A stretch of 64,000 nt of DNA from contig NC_086107.1 of assembly GCF_963921235.1 (NCBI RefSeq), positions 106,766,001 through 106,830,000 on the forward strand, given 5' to 3'. The notes under the pieces are model-generated. The model saw only the letters and a program-made list of their open reading frames with translations, was not told the DNA's origin and ran no database searches. The translations under genes were made by a program, and so were the position numbers. Numbering within the stretch: the first letter of the stretch is position 1; every line of letters begins with the position of its first letter. Below, one piece after another: positions 1 through 28,410 of the stretch. The stretch comes from Mobula hypostoma (taxonomy: Eukaryota).

Positions 1-3000
1 ATCGGGAGGTTGTCCGTCGTGTCTGACGACGACAGGAGACCTGTGCAGGAAGTTTTTAAAGTGGAAAAGTGGAAAAGGCTGGAAGGGTCTGTTACCTAGA
101 TAAATAAACCTACATTTTAAAGATCCGATGGCAGAGAAGAAGAAGCTGCTCCAAAAAATATTGAGTGTAGGCCTTCACCCTGATGGTAGGTTTACCAATG
201 CTTGGTAAAGACTTGTTACCCACCACATAAATACACTCCATTATTTTTATAAACGTCTATAAGGTCACCCCTCAGACTTTTGCGTTCCAGTGAGAACAAT
301 CCCAGCCCAACCAATCTCTCCTTGTAATTAAACCACTCTATTGGTTGCAGTGTCATAGTGAATGTCTTCCGCACTCTTTCTCCTGCTGCCATATCCTTCC
401 TATAACACGGTGACCAGAACTTCACACAATAGTCCACGTGTCTTATACAGTTATAACATCATGGTCCAACTCTTCTACTCAATGCCCATGCTTATGACAG
501 TCCGAAAGCCACATTCCTTCTTCACTAACCTATCCATAACATCGCCATTAAGGGGCTTTGAACTTGGGTCCCTCGGCTTCTAAGTTCCCTTGTGTTTACT
601 TTATATTCTCAACTAGTATTAGACAGCCAAAAATTCATTACCTCACACTTGTTTGCATTAATCAGAATCAGGTTTAATATCACCAGCATATGTTGTGAAA
701 TTGTTAACAGCAACAGCAGTACAATGCAAAACATGATAAAAATAGAAAAAAAACTAAATCACAGTAAGTATATTTTTATTTATTTATTAAATAGGTACAA
801 AAAAACAGAAATAAAAAAATGGTGAGATAGTGTTCATGGTTTCAATGTCCATTTAGAAATCGGATGGCAGAGGGGAAGACGCTGTTCCTGAATCACTGAG
901 TGTGTGCCTTCAGACTCCTGTACCTCCTACCTGATGGTAATGATGAGAAAAGGGCATCTCCTGGGTGGTGGGGGTCCTTAATGATGGAAGCTGCTTTTCT
1001 GAGGCATTACTCCTTGAAGATGTCTTGGCTACTACGGAGTCCATGATGGAGCTGACTAATTTTACAACTCTCTGCATCACATCTCAACGCTGTGCAGTAG
1101 CCCCCACCGCCCGCCCCATACCAGACAGAGATGCAGCCAGTCAGAATGCTCTCCATTGTATATCTGTAGAAATCTGAATTCCATCTGCTACCATTTTTCC
1201 CTGTTTTCCAGCTAATCTAAGTTCCTCCGTATCCCTGGGCAACCGTCCTCACTATCTACAATTCCAACAACCATGTTGTCAGCAAACTTACTGAGACGTC
1301 AGATACTCTCTGCTGACTGAGAAGGAAGACGGAAGATGCCAGCATAGGAAAGGTGGGAGGAGGGGAAGGAGGCTAACTAGGAGGTGATAGGTGGGCGGGA
1401 AAGGTCAAGGGCCAGAGAAGAAGGAAGCTGATAGGAGAGGAGAGTGGACTATAGGAGAAAGGGAGGGAAGAGGGGACCCGGGGGGGCAAGTGACATTCAT
1501 TTCCATAGATGCTGCCTAACCCGCTGAGTTCCTTCAGCGTTTTGTGTGTGCGTGTGTCGCTTTGGGTTTCCAGCATCGTGTTTCAGATGTTCTCACCCAA
1601 CGAGGCCACAGCCCTGATCCGTGCAGTATATTACTGGTTACAGACATCCAGTCGGTAAAACAACCCTCCACTACTACCCTCCAATCCAAAACTGGCTTGG
1701 TAATACTTGTATGAGGCAGTGCTCCAAAACACTCCGGCCAGCAAGTGTCCTTGCTTTCTGGAGCTGCCCACCACGCAAGATCTAAAAATCCTTGCTAAAG
1801 TCCACATATACAATATCTACTGCCTTGCTTCAACAAATTTCACAGTAACCTCCTCAAAAAAAAACCTTCACATTTCTGAGTCAGGATTTCACAAGCGCAA
1901 AACTGTATCAACTCCACTATCAGTCTCCTGCCTTTCCAGAGGTCATACATCCTACTTCCAATAATTTTTTTCTAATCGTTTCCTTAGAAGCCCAAAGTTC
2001 AGCGAGTCTAATCTAATTTACTACTAACACAAAGTCTTATCGCTGCAATCCTTCTTGAATATATGAACATTAGCTACCCTGCAGTACCTCACCCGTGACT
2101 AAAGATGATGCAAAAATCTCAGTCCAAAAGGAGACCATTCAGTTCATTGTTTACATGGTGATCAAAAGCCTTTTGTTTCCGAGGGCCTTCAGTAAAAGAT
2201 GGTCAGTCATTAATAAATGCAGTAAGGACTTGAGGAGAAGCATTTTTATCCAAAATGGTGAAGGAATGGCTGAGGTAAAAACCAGATCACGGGTTCGTGA
2301 GGAAGCTGAAGAATTGCACGAAGAAGACAGGAAGGGGAAGGATTTATTGATGCAGCAGTTGGAGAGAGAAAAAGAAGAGGCTTCTGTGGAACACAAACGC
2401 CAGCACCTGGTCCCAATGGCCTACTTCTGAGCCGATGTCTCAATCAATATTAAACTAAAGCAAGGCTACTAGGTGCCCCAATAGCCAATGAAGTCATAAT
2501 CATACTTCATTGATCCCGGGGGAAATTGGTTTTCGTTACAGTTGCACCATAAATAATAAATAGTAATAGAACCATAATAGTTAAATAATAATATGTAAAT
2601 TATGCCAGTAAATTATGAAATAAGTCCAGGACCAGCCTATCGGCTCAGGGTGTCTGACCCTCCAAGGGAGGAGTTGTAAAGTTTGATGGCCACAGGCAGG
2701 AGTGACTTCCTATGACGCTCTGTGTTGCATCTCGGTGGAATGAGTCTCTGGCTGAATGTACTCCTGTGCCCAACCAGTCCGTTATGTAGTGGATGGGAGA
2801 CATTGTCCAAGTGCAGTTACTGTTACCGGCTCCTTGAAAAATTGGGAGAAGTTACATGCAAAAGTAATGTCGAATATCAGACCACGAATACTGGAATTCA
2901 GCAATAGGGCTGGAAGTTCTCTGCAGGTTAGCAACACCTGTGGAGAGAGGTTTAGATCTTTGACCTCAACTTTCAAAGTACAAAGTAGGTATACATTATA

Positions 3001-3007
3001 CAACCTT

Positions 3008-3311
3008 GAGATTGGATAGCCAGCGCCTCTTCCCCAGGGCACCACTGCTCAATACAAGAGGACATGACTTTAAGGTAAGGGGTGGGAAGTTCAAGGGGAA
3101 TATTAGAGGAAGGTTTTTTACTCAGAGAGTGGCTGGTGCGTGGAATGCACTGCCTGAGTCAGTGGTGGAGGCAGATACACTCGTGAAGTTTAAGAGACTA
3201 CTAGACAGGTATATGGAGGAATTTAAGGTGGGGGCTTACATGGGAGGCAGGGTTTGAGGGTCGGTACAACATTGTGGGCCGAAAGGCCTGTACTGTGCTG
3301 TACTATTCTAT
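3008..3311 (+). mobile_element. CR1 LINE 3' fragment
   Basis: TRGHDFKVRGGKF...FFTQRVAGAWNALP. Confidence 0.85.
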
Positions 3312-5688
3312 GAATCTCCCAACAGGAAACCATGAAACAAAGAAAGCTAAAAGAAGCCGTTTAAAACAAGACCGTCAAACACTTAACATGCAGAGAGGAA
3401 AAAAAAACAAATCATGCAAACAATAAACACAAGCAAATAGCGTTCTGAACTGAAGTCCACAAAGGGTGTCTGTCTATAAAACCTTAGTTCAGCGCATGAT
3501 GGGGTAACGGGGTAGGTAAATAGGGGTACAGACTAAGAACAATGGTCAATCACCTTGGGTGCGCCTTAGCTTACTGTTTTGGACAGTCAAACAGAAGCTT
3601 TACCCAATAACCGGTGACGTACTAGTCATTGTTCTCTAAAGACAGGCAAAGGCTCAAATAAGGAACTATCTGATCTTGCAGAAGCAGCTCAAGGTATAGC
3701 TAAATATGGCAAGTATAGTGTAGGGGCTAGAATGTTCTGGAGAAAAGAGGAAGGGGTCCGAATGAGGAACTGATGGGCTAGCTTTGGCTTAAAATAATTA
3801 TAACTAACTGACCAATGATTATTTTATATCTAATTATATCTTAGCATGTAATTGAAATGATTCTAATATTATCTAAACTTGTAATCGTAAGATTTCCTGC
3901 TACCTGATTAACGTTATATATTGTGGAGAATTGTGTAATTCGGGGGCAGTGTCTGGACTGGCTCCTTTGGGAGATCAGTCTGTAACTTCCCCCATAGCAT
4001 GCTATGAGTAAAGAATAAGGGTTTGAAAAAGAATTACGTGTGTTAGTGTTTTTGTGGTATTTTGTCTTTGCATCGGTCAGTCCAGTACGACACGCAGAGT
4101 CGAGTAAGCATCCTGGAGCAGTGAGCTGAACTGGCCCGTCCCTCACCTTGGGCTCTGACACCCTAACTTTTTCAGTCTGGCCTGGCACATAACTTGTCCA
4201 AACATTGGGTTCTGTCACTTCCACATGCTCTGAAGCCTGGACCCCACCACCTCGACTCGGCCTGAACCCGACTTTTCCAATTCGATCTGAACCACCAATT
4301 CTGTTTTACTTTCTTCAAATGCCGCCTGACCTAAGGATTTTCAGTATTTTCTTGTTTTTATACGAGAGCAAAACATCCATTCTTTGAAAGACTGATTGAA
4401 CAGCCATGATAAGAGACCAAAAACTTGCTACAATAAAATGGCTCTCCGACAGCAGCATAATTCACACTTCTGACAATAAGCCGCTCCCTCAGAACTGTCC
4501 TAATGGTGTCTTCCTAAAGTCACATGAGCGAGTTCCATCGTTTGAGACCTAAATACTGAATCGCATTGTGCCTATCACAAAGGGCAGGGGCTTGTCACAT
4601 GAAAACTCACGTGGGAGCTGCCTCAATGCTGCTCTCTCATTCTCTCACTCCATGGCAGAAGGGTCAGAGGACTGGTCCCACGCGAACTTCAGGCGGGATC
4701 TAAAAATACCTACAATAATTTGGCCACACACTCGCCACTTTGTTCTCCAAGCACTGCTAAAGGGCATGGAGCAAGCACAACGGGAGTGATGAAAGAGTTT
4801 GAAATGTTGCACCGTGTAATTGGCGAGATGCTGGGAAGTGGTGATCCTGAGATGAGAATAATCTCTTTGACTTGCTCACACAACGTTGACATCACTGGAA
4901 GACCACCATCTATTGGCCATCCCTAACTGATCTTGAAGCCTCCTTGTACCATCCGATGAAGACACTCCTATTGGAGCTCTAAGATTTAGACCCAGGTTGC
5001 AACTCATTCTAGTAATAGACACTTAAAAGCCCTGCCACAAATTCAAGATTGATTTTCATTCAATCACACATGAATACAACCAAACAGGACAGCGATATTC
5101 CGGGGCCAAGGTACAAAACACAGTCCCAAAAGTCACACACAGCATGCAAAAAAATAGTCCAGACCCTGAGTCCACGTAATGCCACAGGAATCTGCAGTCG
5201 ACCACAACACGGCTTGCTTTCTGGCGAGTAAAGACTGGGGGGCAGCACTGACTCCAGCCTGGGTACAGCGCCACACCGCCCCTGGAGGAGCACACTGGCT
5301 CTGGCGCGCGCCCCCCCGCCCCGGCGGCTGTAATCAGGCGACACTGTGGCTTGAGGCCTTGTCCTTGCTGTGACTGAGGCCACGCAATTCCCCTGCTCTC
5401 TGCCAATGAATCGGTGAATCACTCGTGCAGCAGTCCGCATTAACAATGTCCAAAAGGGTCTTGCAATCGCCAGAAAAGCGACTAAGACGGTCACTCGCTA
5501 TTAGACTGCACGCCTCCATTAAAGCACCCACCACGGCCTTGACGTTTCCTACCTCCAGTCCCCACATTCCAAAGACAAACATTACAGGGTTATTAAGTTG
5601 TAGGCATGCTGTGTTGGCGCTGGGAGTATGGCGACACTTGCAGTAAGTCCTCAATATAAACAACACACTTTATTGTATGTTTTGATGT

Positions 5689-6227
5689 GTTCGTCCATCG
5701 TCGACATCGATGAGGACCTCGACACCATTATGATGGTGTCGAGACTAGCGCGTGATTTGGATTTAAGTGAGGGAGAGTTGCCTCACTCTCTCTTCCCAAT
5801 TCCCGTCTGGATCCAGTGGCAAGACAGAGTCGAGACGGCTGGAGATGGGACTAGGCACAGTGGATGACCAGGGCGTCTTCTGTGTCTTGTCCTGCTCTAC
5901 ACGTTCCACGACGCTTGCAGAAACCGCCTTCTTGACCATTGGACCTTCCATTGGTCTCGTCCACTCAATCCGCCGGAGTCTGTCTTCACATGCTGGGATA
6001 GACAACTCCCTATCTCACCGAGGGTTTGAGACCCGTCGGCTACCCTCACCTGGTTTAGCCGGCTTGTCGAAGCCGTTGCCCGGGGTGTGGCCGCTGTCGC
6101 ATGCAAACTGCTACGGGAAGCCACAGGTGAGAGCTGACAGCCAGGTGGGGACCAAAGGTGGACTAACCGCCTTGAAAAGGACACGACATGTTCCCCCAAC
6201 AGAGGTGCTACCCCTCCCTGACACCCC
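5689..6227 (-). mobile_element. Non-autonomous RTE-type retroelement, 539 bp, with 12-bp TSD
   Basis: ATGTTTTGATGT duplicated at 5677-5688 and 6228-6239. CpG-rich, no transposase or RT ORF. Terminal 11-bp hairpin at 5718-5743. RTE assignment is from resemblance to RTE 5'UTRs and TSD length. Confidence 0.75.
6043..6227 (-). ncRNA. Candidate HDV-like self-cleaving ribozyme at the 5' end of the element
   Basis: P1 GGGGUGU/ACACCCC; P2 CUCUCACCUG/CAGGUGAGGG; P3 GGC/GCC; GG for P1.1; P4 CGGCUU-CGAC-AAGCCG; J4/2 GCUAAAC. Elements occur in the correct order, and G1 abuts the TSD. Confidence 0.65.
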
Positions 6228-6707
6228 ATGTTTTGATGTACATGTGACAAATAAAGATGATCTATAATCTCCCAAAACCTCTACATTCCATCAATTCTGG
6301 CTTCAGTTTTAAAATCCAACCTAGCCAGGGCCAAACTAAACCACACCTGAGACAGCACCAACACAGATTAGCCTCGCCAAGGATGGCTGGGGTTATCCAG
6401 ACTGTACTTGAGCATCCTGATTTCGTTTGCTTCCAGCACTGGAAGTGTGCGTTCAGCTGTTGAGGCTCATAGACTCCTGAGGTGTCTCCCTGAACCCCTC
6501 CAATTCTCCTTCCTCTTATAAAGGAACTCCTTCAGACCAACGTATGAGGTGGTAGTGATGTTCAAAGGTTCAAAGGTAAAAATAGTATCGAGAACATGAG
6601 ATGTAAAGAGTTGTTGAATATGAATCTGTAGATCATAGAGTCAGTTCAGAGTTGTGGTGAGTGAAGTTATCCATGCCAGTTCAGGATCCTGATAGGTGTA
6701 GGGTAAT

Positions 6708-6830
6708 CACAAGGAAATCTGCAGATGCTGGAATTTCAAGCAACACACATGAAAGTTACTGGTGAACGCAGCAGGCCAGGCAGCATCTCTAGGAAGAGGT
6801 ACAGTCGACGTTTCGGGCCGAGACCTTAAG
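6708..6830 (-). mobile_element. Short Penelope-like terminal-repeat insertion, 14-bp TSD
   Basis: AGGTGTAGGGTAAT at 6694-6707 and 6831-6844; truncated inside hammerhead stem II. Confidence 0.8.
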
Positions 6831-8144
6831 AGGTGTAGGGTAATAACTGTTCCTGAACCTGTTGGTGTGGGTCCTGAGGCTCCTGTACCTCCTCCCCAGT
6901 GGTGTTAACAAGAAGAGGACCTGGCCTGGATGGTAGCTTTACTGTATTGTATGCTAATGAAACATATCACAATGAAAGAGAGAGAGAGATTCCAGACTAT
7001 TGAGTATAAAAGTGGATCGAAAGAGAAGGTTCTAGAGAAAGCCACAACACGAGGGGTATATAGACAGGGTAAACGCAAGTAGCTTTTTTCCACTGACATT
7101 GGGCGAGACTAGAACTAAAAGTCATGGGTGAAAGGTGAAATGTTTAAGGGGAATATCGGGGGGACTTCTTCACTCAGAGGGTGGTGAGAGTGTGGAGTGA
7201 GCTGCCAGCAGAAGTGGTGGATATAGGTGTAATTTCAACATTTAAGAGGATCTGGGTAAGTACATGGATGGGAGGTGTTTGGAGGGCTATGGTCCAGTGC
7301 AGGTCAATGGGATGAAGCAGATCAATAGGCCAGCATGGACTAGATAGGCCAAAGGGCCTGTTTCTGTGCGGTAATGTTCCATGACTGGATGAAAGTACAA
7401 GGAGCACAGAGAGGAAGTGGAGCGGCTGGTGGATTGGTGTGAGATGAAAGGAAATCATTTAGGATGAACCATCCCCCATGGCTCCTTTGTAGAGAGAGTC
7501 AAGTGCACCAAGCTCCTGGGACTTCACATCATGGAGGACCTCAACTGGTCCTCCAATACCACCTCCCTGAACAAGAAGGCACAGTAGTGCCTCCACTTCC
7601 TCAGCAGGTTGAGGCAAATGTGTCCCCCCCCCATCTTAACTGCATTTTACAGGAGCACCATTGAGAGCGTCCTGACAAGTTACATCGCCACCTGGTATGG
7701 GAGCAGCCAAGCAATGGACTGGAAATCCCCCACAAAGGACTGTGAGAATGGCTGAGGGGATTATAGGGGCTTCCTACCATTCACCTGGGACATTTATCAG
7801 GAGTACTGTGTACGCTGGGCCCTTAGCATTATCCTCTTTGACTTTCTACCATCAGGCAGAAGCCTCCAATGTATAACAACAAGAACGGTCAGGATGGAAA
7901 ACAACTTTCTTCCCTCTGACCACCAGGCTTCTGAACTCTCTGCTACAACGCATTCGAAGCGTGACTGGTTAATCTGTTCTGTACCCTACAATATTTATTT
8001 TATGGCTTAGTTTTTGCATAATTCATCCGTAGATTTTATCCTTACTTTGTTGTGTATGTTATGTGTACTACTGTGCTTTACACCCCAGTTCGGAGAAAGA
8101 TCTCATTTGAGAGTATACACGTATATAGTTAAATGACAAACTTG

Positions 8145-8592
8145 AATGTCATATGTTGAAAAATTGGAGCGACTGGGCTTGTATACACTGGAATTTAGAA
8201 GGATGAGAGGGGATCTGATTGAAACATATAAGATTATTAAGGGATTGGACACGCTAGAGGCAGGAAACATGTTCCCGATGTTGGGGGAGTCCAGAACCAG
8301 AGGCCACAGTTTAAGAATAAGGGGTAGACCATTTAAAACAGAGTTGAGGAAAAACTTTTTCACACAGAGGGTTGTGGTTCTGTGGAATGCTCTGCCTCAG
8401 AAGGCAGTGGAGGCCAATTCTCTGGATTCTTTCAAGAAAGAGTTCGATGGAGCTCTTAAAGATAGCAGAGTGAAGGGATATGGGGATAAGGCAGGAACAG
8501 GGTACTGATTGTGGATGATCAGCTATGATCACAGTGAATGGTGGTGCTGGCTCAAAGGGCCGAATGGCCTACTCCTGTACCTATTGTCTATT
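8145..8592 (+). mobile_element. CR1 LINE 3' fragment
   Basis: LGLYTLEFRRMRGDLIETYKI...RTRGHSLRI...FFTQRVVVLWNALP; tail CCTATTGTCTATTG. Confidence 0.92.
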
Positions 8593-9844
8593 GACTTGAA
8601 AGGGAAAATAGAAATGTTTCAATATTCTTAATGTAGCTTAGTCTCTTGTAAAGCACTTTGGGATGTTGTGTTATGTTAGGGTCACTAGGTAAGTGGAAGC
8701 TATGTAGTTTGGTGAAGATTTCCTTGGACTTTAATCCCACAGCTTTGCCTGCATAGTCAGATCAATTCTCTGGTTTTGGCAGGGATTGGGGCAACAGCAG
8801 GGTCTGGAGGCTGTGCTGACATCCAGGGAACTGGCTTGGAAGTAGCACTGCTCTTTACACACTGTGCACCTTACAGGATTTGACTGGAATGCTGCCAGAA
8901 CATCTCCCCTCCCACCCCTTGCCCATCTGCTTGGGAATTGTGGCTCTGCTAACTTGCGTGAGAATTGTGCCCTGCTCACTCAGTTTCCTGCCTTCCCCAA
9001 GCCAGTTCCTGTCAGCCACGGTCTTCTTTCTAATTATTTCTCTGACCCTTTCAAGCTGTGAGACGCTTCGGTTATTTTCTGATTTCCCTCTTTCCATCTC
9101 ATTAGTCAGGTGTCAAGAGCAGGGAACTGCAAAGAATGAGATCTAAAATCACGAATAGTAACAGGTCAGAGTTACAAAGGGATGAGGGATTCTTCTTTTT
9201 CAAGTGGAAGGCAGACGAAATAAGCTATAATTTTGCTAGAGAATGGTGAACCTTCTTCCAGATGAATGAGTGAACCCTGAACAGCATTCCCACTCACTCC
9301 CTATTTTCTTTTGCATTCTACATTAAGCTCCACCCTGCTTCCCTGAGTTTCTTTCCATCGAGGATGCTAATCCTCCGGTGACCTTAACGGAGATAAATAC
9401 ACGCAAACAGGTGCATGCACGCACGCTGGGGAGGAGGAGAGAGCGAAAGAGGGGAGAGGGGAGAAGAGCGAGAGAGCCAGGGACACAGATGCTGTCGCCG
9501 TAAGCAGTGAGCCACGTTGGGAAAATTACACAGAGCAGACATGATTTGATAAAGCGAGGCGCAGAATACAAGAGCAAGCAAGTCGTGGTGAACCTTTGTG
9601 AAGCACTGACTCAGCTGCAGCTGCCCTGTTCTGAGTACCACACTTGAGAGGATGTAGCAGTGATTTGCCAGAATGTTTCCAGGCATGGGGTATAGACTGC
9701 AGAAGCTCACACTGGTACAGGGGCAGATGCAAGGGGAGCTGAGAGAATGGAATTTAAATCACAGAGTATTGTTATTACCATTGGTAGAGGGGGGGCAGGA
9801 ACAGGGGCCACTAGAAAGATAACTGGCAAAACAATCAAAAGTGA

Positions 9845-10100
9845 TTTATTTATTTATTGAGATACAGCATAGAATAGGCCCATCCAGCCACAGCACCCAG
9901 CAATCCCCCGATTTAATCCTATCTTAATCACAGGACAATTTACAATGCCAATTAACTTACTAACTGGTACCTCTTTGGACTGTGGAGGAAACCCACGCAC
10001 TCACAGGGGAGAACGTACAAACTCCTTACAGGCAGCGGCGGGAATAGAACCGGGGTCACCGGTACTGTAAAGCATCGTGCTAACCACTGTGCAGCCATGC
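9845..10100 (-). mobile_element. V-domain tRNA SINE
   Basis: Reverse-complement homology to 17456-17722. Confidence 0.8.
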
Positions 10101-10261
10101 CATTACAACCACTTATCTGAACTGCTGGGATTGTAGTGAAGGTACATCTGCAGCAGAGGGCAAGGCAGATTTGATTATGTTTCAAAGCGAGCTGGATATT
10201 TGAGAGAAGGGGCTATGGGGTGAGGGAGGGGAGTGTGACAAATTGGATTACTCCTATGTGG

Positions 10262-10810
10262 TCAGACTTCACTTGGAGGACTTTGAGCAGTTTGGGCCCC
10301 TTATTTAAGGAAGGATGTGCTGGCATTGGAGAAGGTCCAGAAGAATTATCTTGGGAACGAAAGGGTTAATATATGAGGAGCTTTTGATCACTTTGGGCCT
10401 GTATTCGCTGGAATTTGGAAGAATGAGCGGGGATCTCATCTAAACCTGTCGAATATTGAAAGGTTTAGATAGAGTGGATATGGAAAGGATGCTTCCCGTA
10501 CTGGGAGTGTCTAGGACCAGAGTGCACAGCCTCAGAATACAAGGACATCCCTTTAAAACAGAGATGAGGAATTTCTTTAGCCAGAGGATGGTGAATCTGT
10601 GGAATTTGTTGCCACAGACGGCTGTGGAGGCCAAGTCTTTGGGTGTACTTAAAGCGGAGGAGGATAAGTTCTTGATTAGTAAGGGCATCGAAGATTATGA
10701 GGAGAAAGCAGGAAAATGGGGTCAAGAGGTTTAATAAATCAGCCATGATGGAATGTCGGAGCAGACTCGATGGGCCCAGTGGTCTAATTCTGATCCTTTG
10801 TCTTATGTTC
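10262..10810 (+). mobile_element. CR1 LINE 3' fragment
   Basis: KGLDRVDMERM...RNFFSQRMVNLWNLLP. Confidence 0.85.
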
Positions 10811-10818
10811 TCATAGAG

Positions 10819-11055
10819 TTACTTGTGTTGGGCACATGGCCAAATGGTTAAGGCGTTCATCTAGTGATCTGAAGGTCGCTAGCTCGAGTCTCAGCTGTGG
10901 CGGCGTGTTTGTGCCCTTGAGCAAGGCACTTCACCACACATTGCTCTACTGTCTGTGTGAGGAGTGGCGCCCCACACAGACTTCCAATCTGCGCCTTGTA
11001 AGGCATGAAAGTGCCTGACGCAGGCCTCTCATGGTCTGAGTCGATGTTCCCCCCC
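10819..11055 (+). mobile_element. tRNA-derived SINE with CORE-like block
   Basis: TGGCCAAATGGTTAAGGCG head; GTGCCCTTGAGCAAGGCACTTCACC CORE-like motif; imperfect TSD TCTCATAGAG/TCTTATAGAG. Confidence 0.7.
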
Positions 11056-12206
11056 TCTTATAGAGAGCCAGTACAAATTTGGAAGACCGAATGGCGTTAT
11101 TTCATGCTGCAGCCATTCTCGTATTCAGAGACACTGATACACAGACAGACAAGATCAACAAGCCCGCTGGAGAAACAGAAATGTGACCTCCAGTCAACAT
11201 TTAATCGTGCACCAAAGACATACACACACACCCTTGTGTGTCAAAGTGGTGCCGGTGTTTATCGATGGATAAGCCACAAAGGGTCCCTGTTTTTCTGTGG
11301 CCCATGACATTCTGTGATAAACAATGGCCCCTAACTGATGGATTGGAATTTGCCGAAGGGTTTCGACCCGAAATGTCGACTGTGCTTTTATCCATAGATG
11401 CTGCCTGGCCTGCTGAATTCCCCCAGCATTTTGTGTGTGTTGCTCGGATTTCCAGCATCTGCAGAATTTCTCTTGTTTGTCATTGGAATTTGTGCTGTAC
11501 GTCACTGACAAGCAAAAGATTAAACCTATTCCCATGCAGTCTACAACAAACAGAAATGGTTCAAGTACAAATGGTTAAACAAGTCGTACTCTGACATCAT
11601 CACAGGTCAGCCTCTGATTGGATGCCCTCCCGTACGTCACCTCCTGCAAGTTGGATTGGATGAAAGCCCAATAAATGGCCCCAGTGCTATTCAGCTCGGA
11701 AACCAGGCACTAATCACTGCGGACATTCTCTTCTGAAATCTCGTTGTGAGAAATAACTCTGGGCAGATCCAATTGTTTTCCCCTTGAACAGAGATGAAGC
11801 TGTCCTTCAATGTCGATTAAATCAAATACAGGACGCCTGAATATGCAGATGCTCAAATCCATATACAACCTTCCTCCAAATCTAGCTTAATATAGAACCC
11901 TGCAACGGAGGATCCTATGTAATTGTAAGACATCCTATAAGTAACGGCTTGTATTTGTACAAATCACTCCCCGTCACCAGGCATCAATCCTTACTCCAGA
12001 AGCACTCTTACAACTCCAGTGTCTGTCGTCATCAAAGGAAGGCAGAGAAAATTACTGCCATTTTGATCTGAATAACAACTCCTCTTTGATACCGAGGTGG
12101 AAGTAGATAAGAGAATTTTTGTTTTAAAACATCAGGTTGCCGTGAGCAACACACACAAAATGCTTGAGGAACTCAGCAGGTCAGGCGGCATCTATGGAGA
12201 GGAAAA

Positions 12207-26019: not shown

Positions 26020-28410
26020 GAATTAGGCCATTTGGCCCATCGAGTCACCATGTGGAGCAGACTCTACATCATCACTGATCCAATTTCCCTCTCAGCCCCA
26101 GTCTCCTGCCTTCCCCCTGTATCCGTCCATGCCCTGACCAATCAAGAAGCTATCAACCTGTGCCTTAAATATATATCAAGACTTGGCCTTCACAGCCACC
26201 GTGGCAACGAATTTCAGATTCACCACTCTCTGGCTAAAAGATCCGTTCTAAAAGGCCGACTGTCTATTCTGAGATGGTGTCCTCCGGTCATAAGACTCTC
26301 CCACCATTGGGAACATCCTCTCCACATTCACTCTATCAAGGCCTTTCACCATTCAATTAGGTTTCAATGATGTCACTCCTCATTTTTCTGAAATTTAGTG
26401 AATACAGGCCCAGAGTCATCAAACGCTCTTCATTTGACAAGCTGTTCAATCCTAGAATCATTTTCGTGAACCTCCTTTGAACTCTCTCCAATGTCAGCAC
26501 ATCATTTCTAAGATAAGGGGCCTAAAACTGCTCACAATGCTTCAAGCGAGGCCTCACCAGTGTTTTGTAAAATTTCCACATTACATCCTTGCTTTTATAT
26601 TCTAGTCATCCTGAAATGAATGCTAACATTGCATTTCCCTTCTTCACTATAGAGTCAACCTGCAAATTAACCTTTAGGAAATCCTGCACAAGGACTCCCA
26701 AGTCCCTTTGTGCCTCAGTTTTTCGCATTTTCTTTTCATTTAGAAATAGTCAACCTTTTCATTTCTTCTACCAAAGTGCACGACCACACACTTCCCAACA
26801 CTATTTCATCTGCCATTTCACTGCCCATTCTCTTAATCTAAGTCCTTCTGTAGCCTCTCTACTTACTCAAAACTACCTGCCCCTCCACCTATCTTCATAT
26901 CGTCTTCAAACTTTACAACAAAGCCATCTATTCCATCATCCAAATCATTGACATATAACATAAAAAGAATCAGACCCCTCTGGAACACCATTAATCACTG
27001 GCAGCAAACCAGAAAAAAACTCCCTTTATTCCCACTCTTTGCCTCCTGCCAATCAGCCACTGCTTTATCCATGCTAGAGTCTTTCCTCTTATACAGTGGG
27101 CTTTTAGCTTGTTAAGCAGCCTCATGTGTGGCACCTTGTCAAAGGCCTTCTGAAAATCCAAGTACACACAACATCAACTGATTCTCCTTTGTCTACCCTG
27201 CTTGTTACTTCTCCAAAGAATTCCAATTGATTTGTCACGCAGGATTTTCCCTTGAACAAACCATGCTGACTATGGCCTATTTTATCATGTTCTTCCAAGT
27301 ACCAGGACCTCATCCTTGATAATTGACTCCAACATCTTCCCAACCGCTGAGGTCAGACTAACTGGCCTAGTTTCCTTTCTTCTGTCTCTCTCCCTTCTTG
27401 AAGAGTGGAGTGACATTTGCAATTTTCAGTCTTCTGGGACTATTCCAGAATCTAGTGATTCTTGAAAAATCATTAATGCCTCCATTTTCTCTTGAGCCAC
27501 CTCTATCAGAACCCTGGGGTGTACACCATCAGGTCCAGGTGACTAATCTACCTTCAGACCTTTCAGTTTCCCAAGAACCTTCTCTCGAATTATGGTAACT
27601 TCACACACTTCATGACCCCTGACACTTGGAACTTCCACCATATTACTAGTGCCTTCCACAGTGAAGACTGACGCTAAATACTTATTCAGTTCATCTGCCA
27701 TTTCGTTGTCCTCCATTTCTACCTCTCCAGCCTCGTTTTCCAGCAGTCTGATATCCACTCTTACCTCTCTTTAACACTTTATGTACCTGAAGAAACTTTA
27801 CCTTCTTAATGGCTTTTTAAAAAATTTCCGTCTGTTGGGTTTTTAAAAAGCTTCCCAATCCTTCAACTTTCCATTAATTTTTGCTCTATTATATACCCTC
27901 TCTTTGGTTTTTATGCTGGCTTTGATTTCTCCTGTTAGCCACAGTTGTGTCATCTTTTGTTCAGAATACCTTTCCCTTTTTGGGATGTATGTAACCCGTG
28001 CCTTCTGAATTGCTTCCAGAAATTCCAGCCATTGCTGCTCTGCCATCATCCCTGCCAGTGTTCTTTTCCAATCAATTCTGGCCAACTCATGCCTCTAATT
28101 CCCCTTACTCCACTGTAATAATGACACATCTGACGTTAGCTTCTCCTTCCCAGATTTCAGGGTAAATTTAATCATAGCATGATCACTTTCTCCCTAAGGG
28201 TTATTTTACCTTAAGCTCTCTAATCAATTCTGATTCATTGCACAACACCCAATCCCTTAGTGGGCGCAACCACAAGCTGTTCTAAAAAGCCATCTCTTAG
28301 GCACTCTAGAAGCTCTCGTCCTGGAATCCAGCACCAACCTGATTTTCCCAATCTACCTGCATATTGAAGTTCCCCATGACTATCGCAACATTGCCCTTTT
28401 GGCATGCCTT
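26020..28410 (-). mobile_element. Long decayed CR1 (HER1-like) LINE fragment: ORF2 including RT region and 3'UTR
   Basis: Broken frames ECLRDGFLEQLV, MADELNKYLASVFT, SQHG.FKGKSCVTNQLEFF, plus the CR1 3' end. Confidence 0.9.

Follow-up and report, generated by a model that had tools for sequence, protein, structure and literature searches.

A candidate hepatitis delta virus-like ribozyme with a hairpin in L3 at the 5′ end of a SINE-like retroelement family of Mobula hypostoma

Does a dispersed repeat of a ray genome owe its 5′ end to an RNA that cuts itself? The question was raised by a 537-nt copy of a retroelement lacking long terminal repeats (non-LTR), similar to a short interspersed nuclear element (SINE), that lies at 6227..5691 on the minus strand of a 64,000-nt stretch of Mobula hypostoma DNA (contig NC_086107.1, positions 106,766,001 to 106,830,000; hereafter the window). 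An initial annotation had assigned this copy to the RTE type and had proposed that a fold similar to that of the hepatitis delta virus (HDV) ribozyme, with an enlarged L3 loop, begins exactly at the element's 5′ end and defined this end at insertion. Our analysis of the family showed that the observation was real, whereas its interpretation was partly supported and had to be relocated from the window copy to the family level. On balance, we lean slightly towards the view that the first ~200 nt of the family form an HDV-like self-cleaving ribozyme of a novel structural variant. Positions below are those of the window, unless alignment columns or family positions are meant, and features of the element lie on the minus strand; paired regions, joining segments and loops are designated P, J and L.

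All the pairings proposed for the window copy, as well as the lengths of L3 (28 nt) and J1/2 (87 nt), were found where the annotation had placed them. The 5′ strand of P1, GGGGUGU (6227-6221), forms seven of seven Watson-Crick pairs with the 3′ strand ACACCCC (P1′, 6088-6082), with C6082 opposite G1, and the proposed cleavage site lies 5′ of 6227. P2 is a 10-bp helix of CUCUCACCUG (6133-6124) with CAGGUGAGGG (6052-6043), which includes one U.G pair and can be extended by an eleventh pair (G.U). P3 consists of GGC/GCC (6122-6120 with 6091-6089) plus U6119.G6092, and P1′ follows directly after it. Downstream of P1′ are GG (6080..6081), proposed for P1.1, the P4 hairpin CGGCUU-CGAC-AAGCCG (6060..6075; 6075-6070 with 6065-6060, loop CGAC), and J4/2 with the sequence GCUAAAC (6059-6053), where C6058 is the candidate catalytic nucleotide. 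In HDV-like ribozymes the catalytic C stands at the start of J4/2 and is followed by N-R-A (the CNRA form). The nested double-pseudoknot order P1-P2-P3-P1′-P1.1-P4-P2′ can be drawn on these elements. J1/2 (6134..6220) contains a hairpin domain closed by GGGG/CCCC (6214-6147), and L3 is divided into a six-nucleotide core (6114..6119, UUCCCG in this copy) and an insertion (6092..6113) composed of UA, a hairpin (6111-6093) and a G.

A search of the 3.48-Gb assembly with the element returned 3,706 first-look candidates (at least 3,700 copies as candidates), and the 40 that were scored were all ~94% identical and nearly full length. The element is a copy of a non-autonomous, SINE-like non-LTR family of ~550 nt. 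The window copy lacks the first 9-nt unit of the family, GGGGTGTAT, as well as an 11-nt stretch found in most copies, and it is closest to a sub-type without this stretch (95–96% identity). In most family copies L3 reads UCCCCG-UA-(GCUGU-UUGCAUGCG-ACAGC)-G. Its hexamer, UCCCCG or UCCAAG, has the U-N4-G spacing with CC for P1.1 and with GG after ACACCCC; U-N4-G with CC is described as the L3 signature of HDV (PMC3386971). Since the hexamer matches this spacing, the extra 22 nt sit 3′ of the conserved G, where the 5-bp hairpin (GCUGU, 9 nt, ACAGC) is conserved in the family. After P1′, the family copies have GG, GCAAC, P4 and GGCUAA. Thus, the UUCC said to open L3 is present in the window copy but is a mutated form of the family's UCCCC. 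In comparison with the family, the window copy carries a C>U change at the first P1.1 cytosine of the hexamer and a U>A change that breaks one pair of the L3 hairpin, and both look like decay. Because of these two changes and the missing first heptamer, the window copy, as a ribozyme, is probably weak or dead, and in its predicted core the family sequence is nearer to HDV than the window copy.

The 5′ ends of the family were determined in several samples. Most of the 30 loci fetched have GGGGTGTAT directly before G1, and the family begins with GGGGTGTAT-GGGGTGT-CAGGG; its 5′ end lies 9 nt upstream of 6227, and the P1 heptamer GGGGUGU is present twice, the window copy having the second. In a further sample of 30 copies, chosen by the 3′ half only, the alignment starts at the first heptamer's position 1 in 15 and at position 2 in three, with the other starts at positions 5, 6, 8 (the window copy), 12, 13, 16, 72, 134, 223, 247, 268 and 276. 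Target-site duplications (TSDs) of at least 7 nt were found in 39 of 54 distinct copies. The starts defined by them fell within −6..+3 of the first heptamer's G in 26 of the 39, often with a few extra nucleotides, at position 10-11, i.e., the second heptamer, in four (the window copy, L006, L024 and L054), and elsewhere in nine. In a sample biased by the AT-rich flank of the query, further starts at the second heptamer (L103, L106, L109 and L111) and copies with three units (L102, L113 and partly L107) were observed. The exact coincidence of the fold with the 5′ end therefore holds for the window copy, whose TSD ends at 6228, but not for the family, most copies of which start 9 nt further upstream. 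The family does extend 5′ of G1, but only by these 9 nt, and since the extension opens with the same P1 heptamer, the putative cleavage site moves and does not disappear.

Sequencing runs from four other organisms yielded contigs that contain the family. In contigs of all four runs, a jump in depth was located in the bin that holds the first heptamer, and the loose ends listed for two of them (X19 and X2) fall exactly at this heptamer; contig ends at repeat borders carry no information on cleavage.

An older subfamily came to light through a decayed copy, L052, whose first 190 nt are 77% identical. The search for this subfamily gave 3,497 candidates; 40 of these were scored, at 82–87% identity, and 20 were fetched. 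The older subfamily retains both heptamers, P2, P3, the L3 hairpin, P1′, GG and GCUAAAC. Taking the majority letter at each of columns 2-199 (198 columns) in 14 young copies and in 19 old ones, we found 29 differences, all of them in the 110 non-core columns: 17 in the J1/2 hairpin domain, four in the J1/2 linkers, two at the two N of UCCNNG, three in J1.1/4 and three in P4. None was found in the 88 core columns, which comprise the heptamers, P2, P3, the U, C, C and G of L3, the L3 insertion, P1′, GG and J4/2 (hypergeometric p ~6e-9, or ~3e-6 when the core is taken without the L3 insertion). The changes tolerated between the subfamilies are located at places where HDV-like ribozymes tolerate them.

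Compensatory changes were observed in two regions. In P4, columns 166 and 179 pair as GC in 14 copies, as CG in 10 and as UA in two, and the pair 169-176 alternates between U-A and U.G. RNAalifold predicted the J1/2 hairpin in columns 25-92, with changes on both sides between the subfamilies at 43-78, 48-73 and 56-71. For the whole proposed structure, 90.9% of cells pair, versus 35–50% when the partners are slid.

A contig from a metagenome (L101), with 77% identity, represents a third lineage. At its 5′ end the heptamer occurs once, directly before GGGAGGGG, with a partial repeat before the heptamer. All core elements are kept, P1′, L3 and J4/2 are the same as in the family, and GCUAAAC of J4/2 is invariant in L101 as well as between the subfamilies, while the tip of the J1/2 hairpin differs (CACC-UUCG-GGUG). 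In P2 of L101, a C-G pair is replaced by A-U, i.e., a double change, and U.G by C-G. A search for relatives of L101 in the M. hypostoma genome gave a best identity of 83%, and the 12 places fetched were ordinary copies of the young family. A sublineage with the A-U pair in P2 was also considered for this genome and rejected, as both changes occur in one place only, in the single copy L064.

The variants listed at ≥10% for the ribozyme part in the four runs were located at J1/2 positions, at L3 positions 112/113 (CC, AA, CU or UC), at 118 and 135 (where each change produces a G.U pair of the hairpin), at 129/130 (a CpG within the L3 hairpin loop), at 149 in J1.1/4 and at 164 in P4 (U-A to U.G). 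None of the variants listed falls in P1, P2, P3 or J4/2; 27 further variants stand outside this listing.

How often such an arrangement arises was assessed with a descriptor, consisting of a 7-bp P1 starting with G, J1/2 of up to ~120 nt, P2 of ≥6 bp, a 3-bp P3, UCCNNG, L3 of ≤35 nt, P1′ with GG directly after it, a hairpin for P4 and CNRA. It matched 27 of 60 loci (some being the same copy fetched twice), always at the first or second heptamer, and gave no match in the flanks of the 60 loci or in the rest of the window. For the window copy to satisfy it, U has to be allowed in place of the hexamer's first C. Random sequence (6 Mb) generated with the dinucleotide composition of the 5′ region contained one match, with a P2 of 8 bp, and none with a P2 of ≥10 bp. 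Among the older copies, one of 21 passed, as expected of decayed copies. The Rfam search of window positions 1-12000 at E ≤ 10 gave two noise matches only, both of the snoRNA type. With 246 nt of an intact copy, two matches were obtained at E ≤ 10, one of them to RF02682 (the HDV ribozyme of F. prausnitzii), which was the only ribozyme family returned and was aligned over P1′-GG-GCAAC-P4-GGCUAA.

Taken as a ribozyme, the family suggests the following course of events. The element, being promoter-less, would be read through from upstream transcription of a host gene or another repeat. In the transcript, the 5′-terminal heptamer GGGGUGU would pair with ACACCCC to form P1, and P2, P3, P1.1 and P4 would complete the nested double pseudoknot, in which the C of GCUAA in J4/2 would cleave immediately 5′ of the heptamer. 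The first base of the released RNA would then be the first base of the element. The reverse transcriptase of a partner long interspersed nuclear element (LINE) would copy this RNA, probably recognising the 3′ stem-loop together with the microsatellite-like tail. The first heptamer would be the usual cleavage site and the second an occasional one, the latter yielding copies like that in the window. The anatomy of the sequence, the 5′ ends of the family and the pattern of conservation and covariation are observed, and the catalytic activity, the sites of cleavage and a role in retrotransposition are inferred from them. The features that would make the ribozyme novel are the conserved hairpin in L3 just after the U-N4-G core and the G-C pair at the cleavage site, and the structured J1/2 hairpin domain also sets it apart from known ribozymes. 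A large structured J1/2 is itself normal for the class (PMC3774820, PMC4908430), so that the 87-nt segment described initially as unusual is not; the L3 insertion is the real oddity. A broader proposal, that an active ribozyme subclass with the L3 hairpin, the G-C pair and tandem heptamers spread a promoter-less SINE-like family to thousands of copies in several related vertebrate genomes, is held more tentatively, as a possibility somewhat short of even.

Several results weigh against self-cleavage. Between the subfamilies, P1, P2 and P3 show no variation; the covariation looked for in P1 to P4 was found in P4 (GC in 14 copies, CG in 10) and is absent at the family level in the other three helices; being unchanged, these count neither for nor against themselves. 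The A-U pair in P2 occurs in one place of this genome (L064), versus A alone in 12 and T alone in five, and its presence in L064 and one metagenome copy could be due to chance. As both changes coincide in a single place, covariation of P2 was counted as suggestive only. The pair at the cleavage site is G-C, not a G.U wobble, in all 14 young copies and in 19 of the 33 copies overall; G.U is found in nine of the 33, at a CpG, and looks like decay. L3 has 28 nt versus about 7–8 nt in HDV-like ribozymes, J4/2 is 6–7 nt long, and HDV-like ribozymes that carry a hairpin in L3 and are active are not known to us. The nested alternatives UGUGGC/GCCACA, GGG/CCC and GGCUA/UAGCC compete with the proposed helices; the first, against which the annotation had cautioned, is real and appears, alongside P2 and P4, in the minimum free energy (MFE) fold of 6040-6227. 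This nested fold has a z-score of +0.55, with 144 of 200 shuffled sequences folding at least as well. The RF02682 match scored 13.2 bits against a gathering score of 44 (E = 4), noise matches of similar E numbered four in 5.4 kb, and none of the 19 older copies matched an HDV family in Rfam; the match is therefore a hint and not a membership call. Finally, the 9-nt units GGGGTGTAT number from one to three per copy. This variation could stem from alternative cleavage, duplication at insertion or slippage of the reverse transcriptase.

The principal alternative is that the 5′ region (~200 nt) is a module, of structured RNA or DNA, that is conserved for a different function and does not cleave itself, the 5′ end being set by transcription initiation. 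The module could act as an internal promoter, a binding site for the proteins of the partner, or an element of the stability or translation type, and its likeness to HDV would be coincidental or would mark a relic disabled by the L3 insertion and the G-C pair. Proven covariation is confined to local hairpins, namely those of P4 and of the J1/2 domain, the pseudoknot helices being invariant, and the core conservation could serve another function. In addition, the 23-nt L3 insertion is as conserved as the core, as would be expected of a protein-binding site. The nested alternative pairings, the Rfam match below the threshold and an MFE not above that of shuffled sequences point the same way, and in L1Tc the same 77 nt that form the ribozyme also act as a promoter (PMC4035085). 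However, this explanation does not account for the exact complementarity between the first 7 nt of the element, which occur in one to three tandem copies and in three lineages, and the 7 nt after P3. Nor does it explain why the tolerated changes coincide with the variable positions of HDV-like ribozymes. A head of the tRNA, 5S or 7SL type is also missing: ARAGORN found no tRNA genes in the element, and Rfam at E ≤ 10 gave no tRNA, 5S or 7SL match in window positions 1-12000 or in the 246 nt of the intact copy, so a standard SINE start by RNA polymerase III (Pol III) is not evident. By eye, the P4 loop loosely resembles a B box, and Pol III A/B boxes were considered and rejected, as the loop lies ~160 nt from the 5′ end and ARAGORN detected nothing. 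We regard such a module as unlikely, though a serious competitor of the ribozyme.

With the HDV-like ribozyme as the favoured reading for the family, a separate issue is whether the window copy itself (6043-6227) is active and cleaves intron 1 of its host pre-mRNA co-transcriptionally, as CPEB3 does. An exon-1-like open reading frame (ORF) of 34 codons, from ATG through W and followed by a GTGAGT donor, is located at 37577-37476 on the strand of the element, ~31 kb upstream of it. We take its product to resemble synaptogyrin N-termini; the 34-aa peptide gave no Pfam match. No exon-2-like motif was found between this ORF and the element or further downstream in the window, so the placement of the element in intron 1 on the same strand is plausible, whereas CPEB3-like cleavage by the window copy is speculative. 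The strand, the donor, and the intact P1, P2, P3, P4 and J4/2 are consistent with cleavage. On the other side, the C>U change at the first P1.1 cytosine and the U>A mismatch in the L3 hairpin affect the core, and the first heptamer is absent, so that pairings within the 5′ part of J1/2 rival the only strand left for P1. The two core mutations and the missing heptamer make efficient cleavage of the intron unlikely. Moreover, the copy is one of thousands of decaying ones with no sign of conservation at the locus, and the name of the host gene is putative: of the 222 ORFs on the minus strand with ≥55 aa, the 150 scanned with Pfam (positions 1-46173) gave no MARVEL match. Overall, we consider intron cleavage by this copy improbable.

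The idea of a chance resemblance, in which a G+C-rich repeat merely allows an HDV-like drawing with no selected structure, can appeal to the MFE z-score, the pairings picked by eye and the Rfam E of 4, but is highly improbable and already disfavoured by the ~1 descriptor match per 6 Mb of composition-matched sequence (none with a P2 of ≥10 bp), by four compensatory pairs that separate the subfamilies, by 0 differences in 88 core columns versus 29 in the other 110, and by a motif that begins at the first base of the element in three lineages.

In sum, as regards the proposal that an HDV-like ribozyme set the inserted 5′ end, the identical core in subfamilies that are 77% alike, U-N4-G with CC and the compensation in P4 argue for it, whereas the G-C pair and the lack of covariation in P1, P2 and P3 do not.

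The remaining parts of the element are those of a non-LTR insertion. The window copy is flanked by a 12-nt TSD, ACATCAAAACAT, at 6239-6228 on the 5′ side and 5688-5677 on the 3′ side, and has a minimal tail, AC (5690-5689), directly before the 3′ TSD. In the family, ...GATGGACGA is followed by a microsatellite-like tail, which may be (ACA)n, (AAC)n, (AACC)n or (AC)n. A perfect 11-bp stem with a 4-nt loop (5718-5743), ~30 nt before the 3′ end of the element, is kept across the family copies and is a candidate recognition element for the reverse transcriptase of the partner LINE. Pfam gave no match for any minus-strand ORF inside the element. The longest open frame overlapping positions 1-8000 (166 aa, 5767-6267) is on the plus strand, antisense to the element. 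The antisense strand was also open across the whole ~550 nt in many copies (L007, L010, L045 and L046); with the flanks, the frame reaches 254 aa in L007 and 273 aa in L010, and in L045 it continues into the reverse transcriptase ORF of a different LINE that hosts this copy. The openness of the antisense strand may merely reflect a G+C-rich composition.

A partner LINE was not found in three attempts, which yielded only SINE copies. A longer parent element upstream of truncated copies was rejected, as the upstream sequences of six 5′-truncated copies were mutually unrelated. A cluster of copies on contig C82 was likewise rejected as a longer element, because a common 3′ flank, of ~120 nt, is limited to L002 and L027. 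A LINE with the same 3′ end was sought through 40 perfect matches to the last 75 nt; in the 20 for which 130 nt upstream were fetched, all 20 proved to be SINE copies. The RTE-type assignment was therefore not borne out, as the element has no ORF and these attempts gave no partner LINE. The only Pfam match among the scanned ORFs was an RVT_1 fragment at 26994-27173 on the minus strand (E 1.8e-6, just under the cut-off), which belongs to an unrelated decayed LINE in the same presumed intron.

Some further copies showed individual arrangements. In L055 (~1835-1878), positions 180-217 of the element stand in inverted orientation before a 5′-truncated copy that starts at position 223, an arrangement which looks like twin priming. 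On contig C82, copies without the 11-nt stretch (L002, L027/L033, L042 and L047) cluster within ~550 kb at 13.9-14.45 Mb; the ~120-nt 3′ flank common to L002 and L027, in which the usual tail is absent, suggests local duplication or 3′ transduction. In L046 (~2060-3280), a long tandem repeat with a 623-codon open frame of ...TLTNEMAPQHT... units adjoins the SINE copy and looks like a minisatellite.

If the ribozyme is active, it would extend the HDV-like fold in two ways: L3, which among the active-site loops is the most constrained, would be shown to accommodate a helical insertion, and the wobble at the cleavage site would have a natural substitute in a G-C pair. The family would then be a vertebrate case of a highly amplified non-autonomous retroelement whose 5′ end comes from RNA self-cleavage and not from a promoter, and its thousands of sense-oriented intronic copies could cut host pre-mRNAs during transcription. 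The P1 repeat, which occurs naturally once, twice or three times, would be informative on shifts of the cleavage site. If it is inactive, the family would provide a case study of how an HDV-like drawing, an exact coincidence with the 5′ end and the conservation of a core can mislead.

Comparison with known systems places the family among several types of HDV-like ribozymes. The end of P1′, GG, GCAAC, the P4 hairpin and GGCUAA align to the RF02682 model of F. prausnitzii; the 5′ half is unaligned, and the model is bacterial, with 13.2 bits reached against the gathering score of 44. With CPEB3, the window copy shares an intronic, sense-strand position of an HDV-type fold in a vertebrate gene, although CPEB3 is a single conserved locus and the window copy is one decaying copy of a repeat with mutations in the core. 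Ruminski and colleagues reportedly described HDV-like ribozymes of RTE and baggins elements in 2011. Such ribozymes are established in RTE, baggins and non-autonomous elements (PMC6765202, PMC4035085). The RTE and baggins elements are promoter-less and rely on read-through transcription, with the ribozyme setting the 5′ end (PMC6765202), as proposed here, and the microsatellite-like tails of our family fit the RTE style; unlike RTE, the family has no APE/RT ORF and no partner LINE was found for it in our three attempts. In trypanosomatids, the short non-autonomous elements of the L1Tc/NARTc and SIDER groups share a 5′ HDV-like module and reach a high copy number (PMC3185411, PMC4035085). Their ribozymes, however, are compact (77 nt), double as a promoter and belong to a protist host, and the likeness considered here is one of layout.

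Other parallels concern J1/2 and the repeated P1. The large ribozyme drz-Agam-2 has a P1.2 domain in J1/2, and a J1/2 helix activates large HDV-like ribozymes (PMC4908430). A structured J1/2 hairpin between P1 and P2, backed by covariation, is likewise present in the family, but it is flanked by linkers of 7–16 nt and 13 nt, so that a "pinching" of P1 and P2 by it is hypothetical. R2 is autonomous, specific to ribosomal DNA and has a short L3, whereas the family is non-autonomous and dispersed, has the L3 hairpin 3′ of the conserved G, and its cleavage is predicted. In both, the ribozyme is located at the 5′ end of a non-LTR element, which it frees, or in the family would free, from the co-transcript, and a large J1/2, extra 5′ nucleotides and a duplicated P1 are common to both. 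In the published account of R2, P1 and P1′ are separated by 23 to over 700 nt, non-templated or extra nucleotides are frequent at 5′ junctions, and duplicated P1 sequences were proposed to give alternative cleavage sites and 5′ extension (PMC3774820). Cleavage at the second heptamer, which would explain copies of the window type, fits this model of two P1 sites (PMC3774820).

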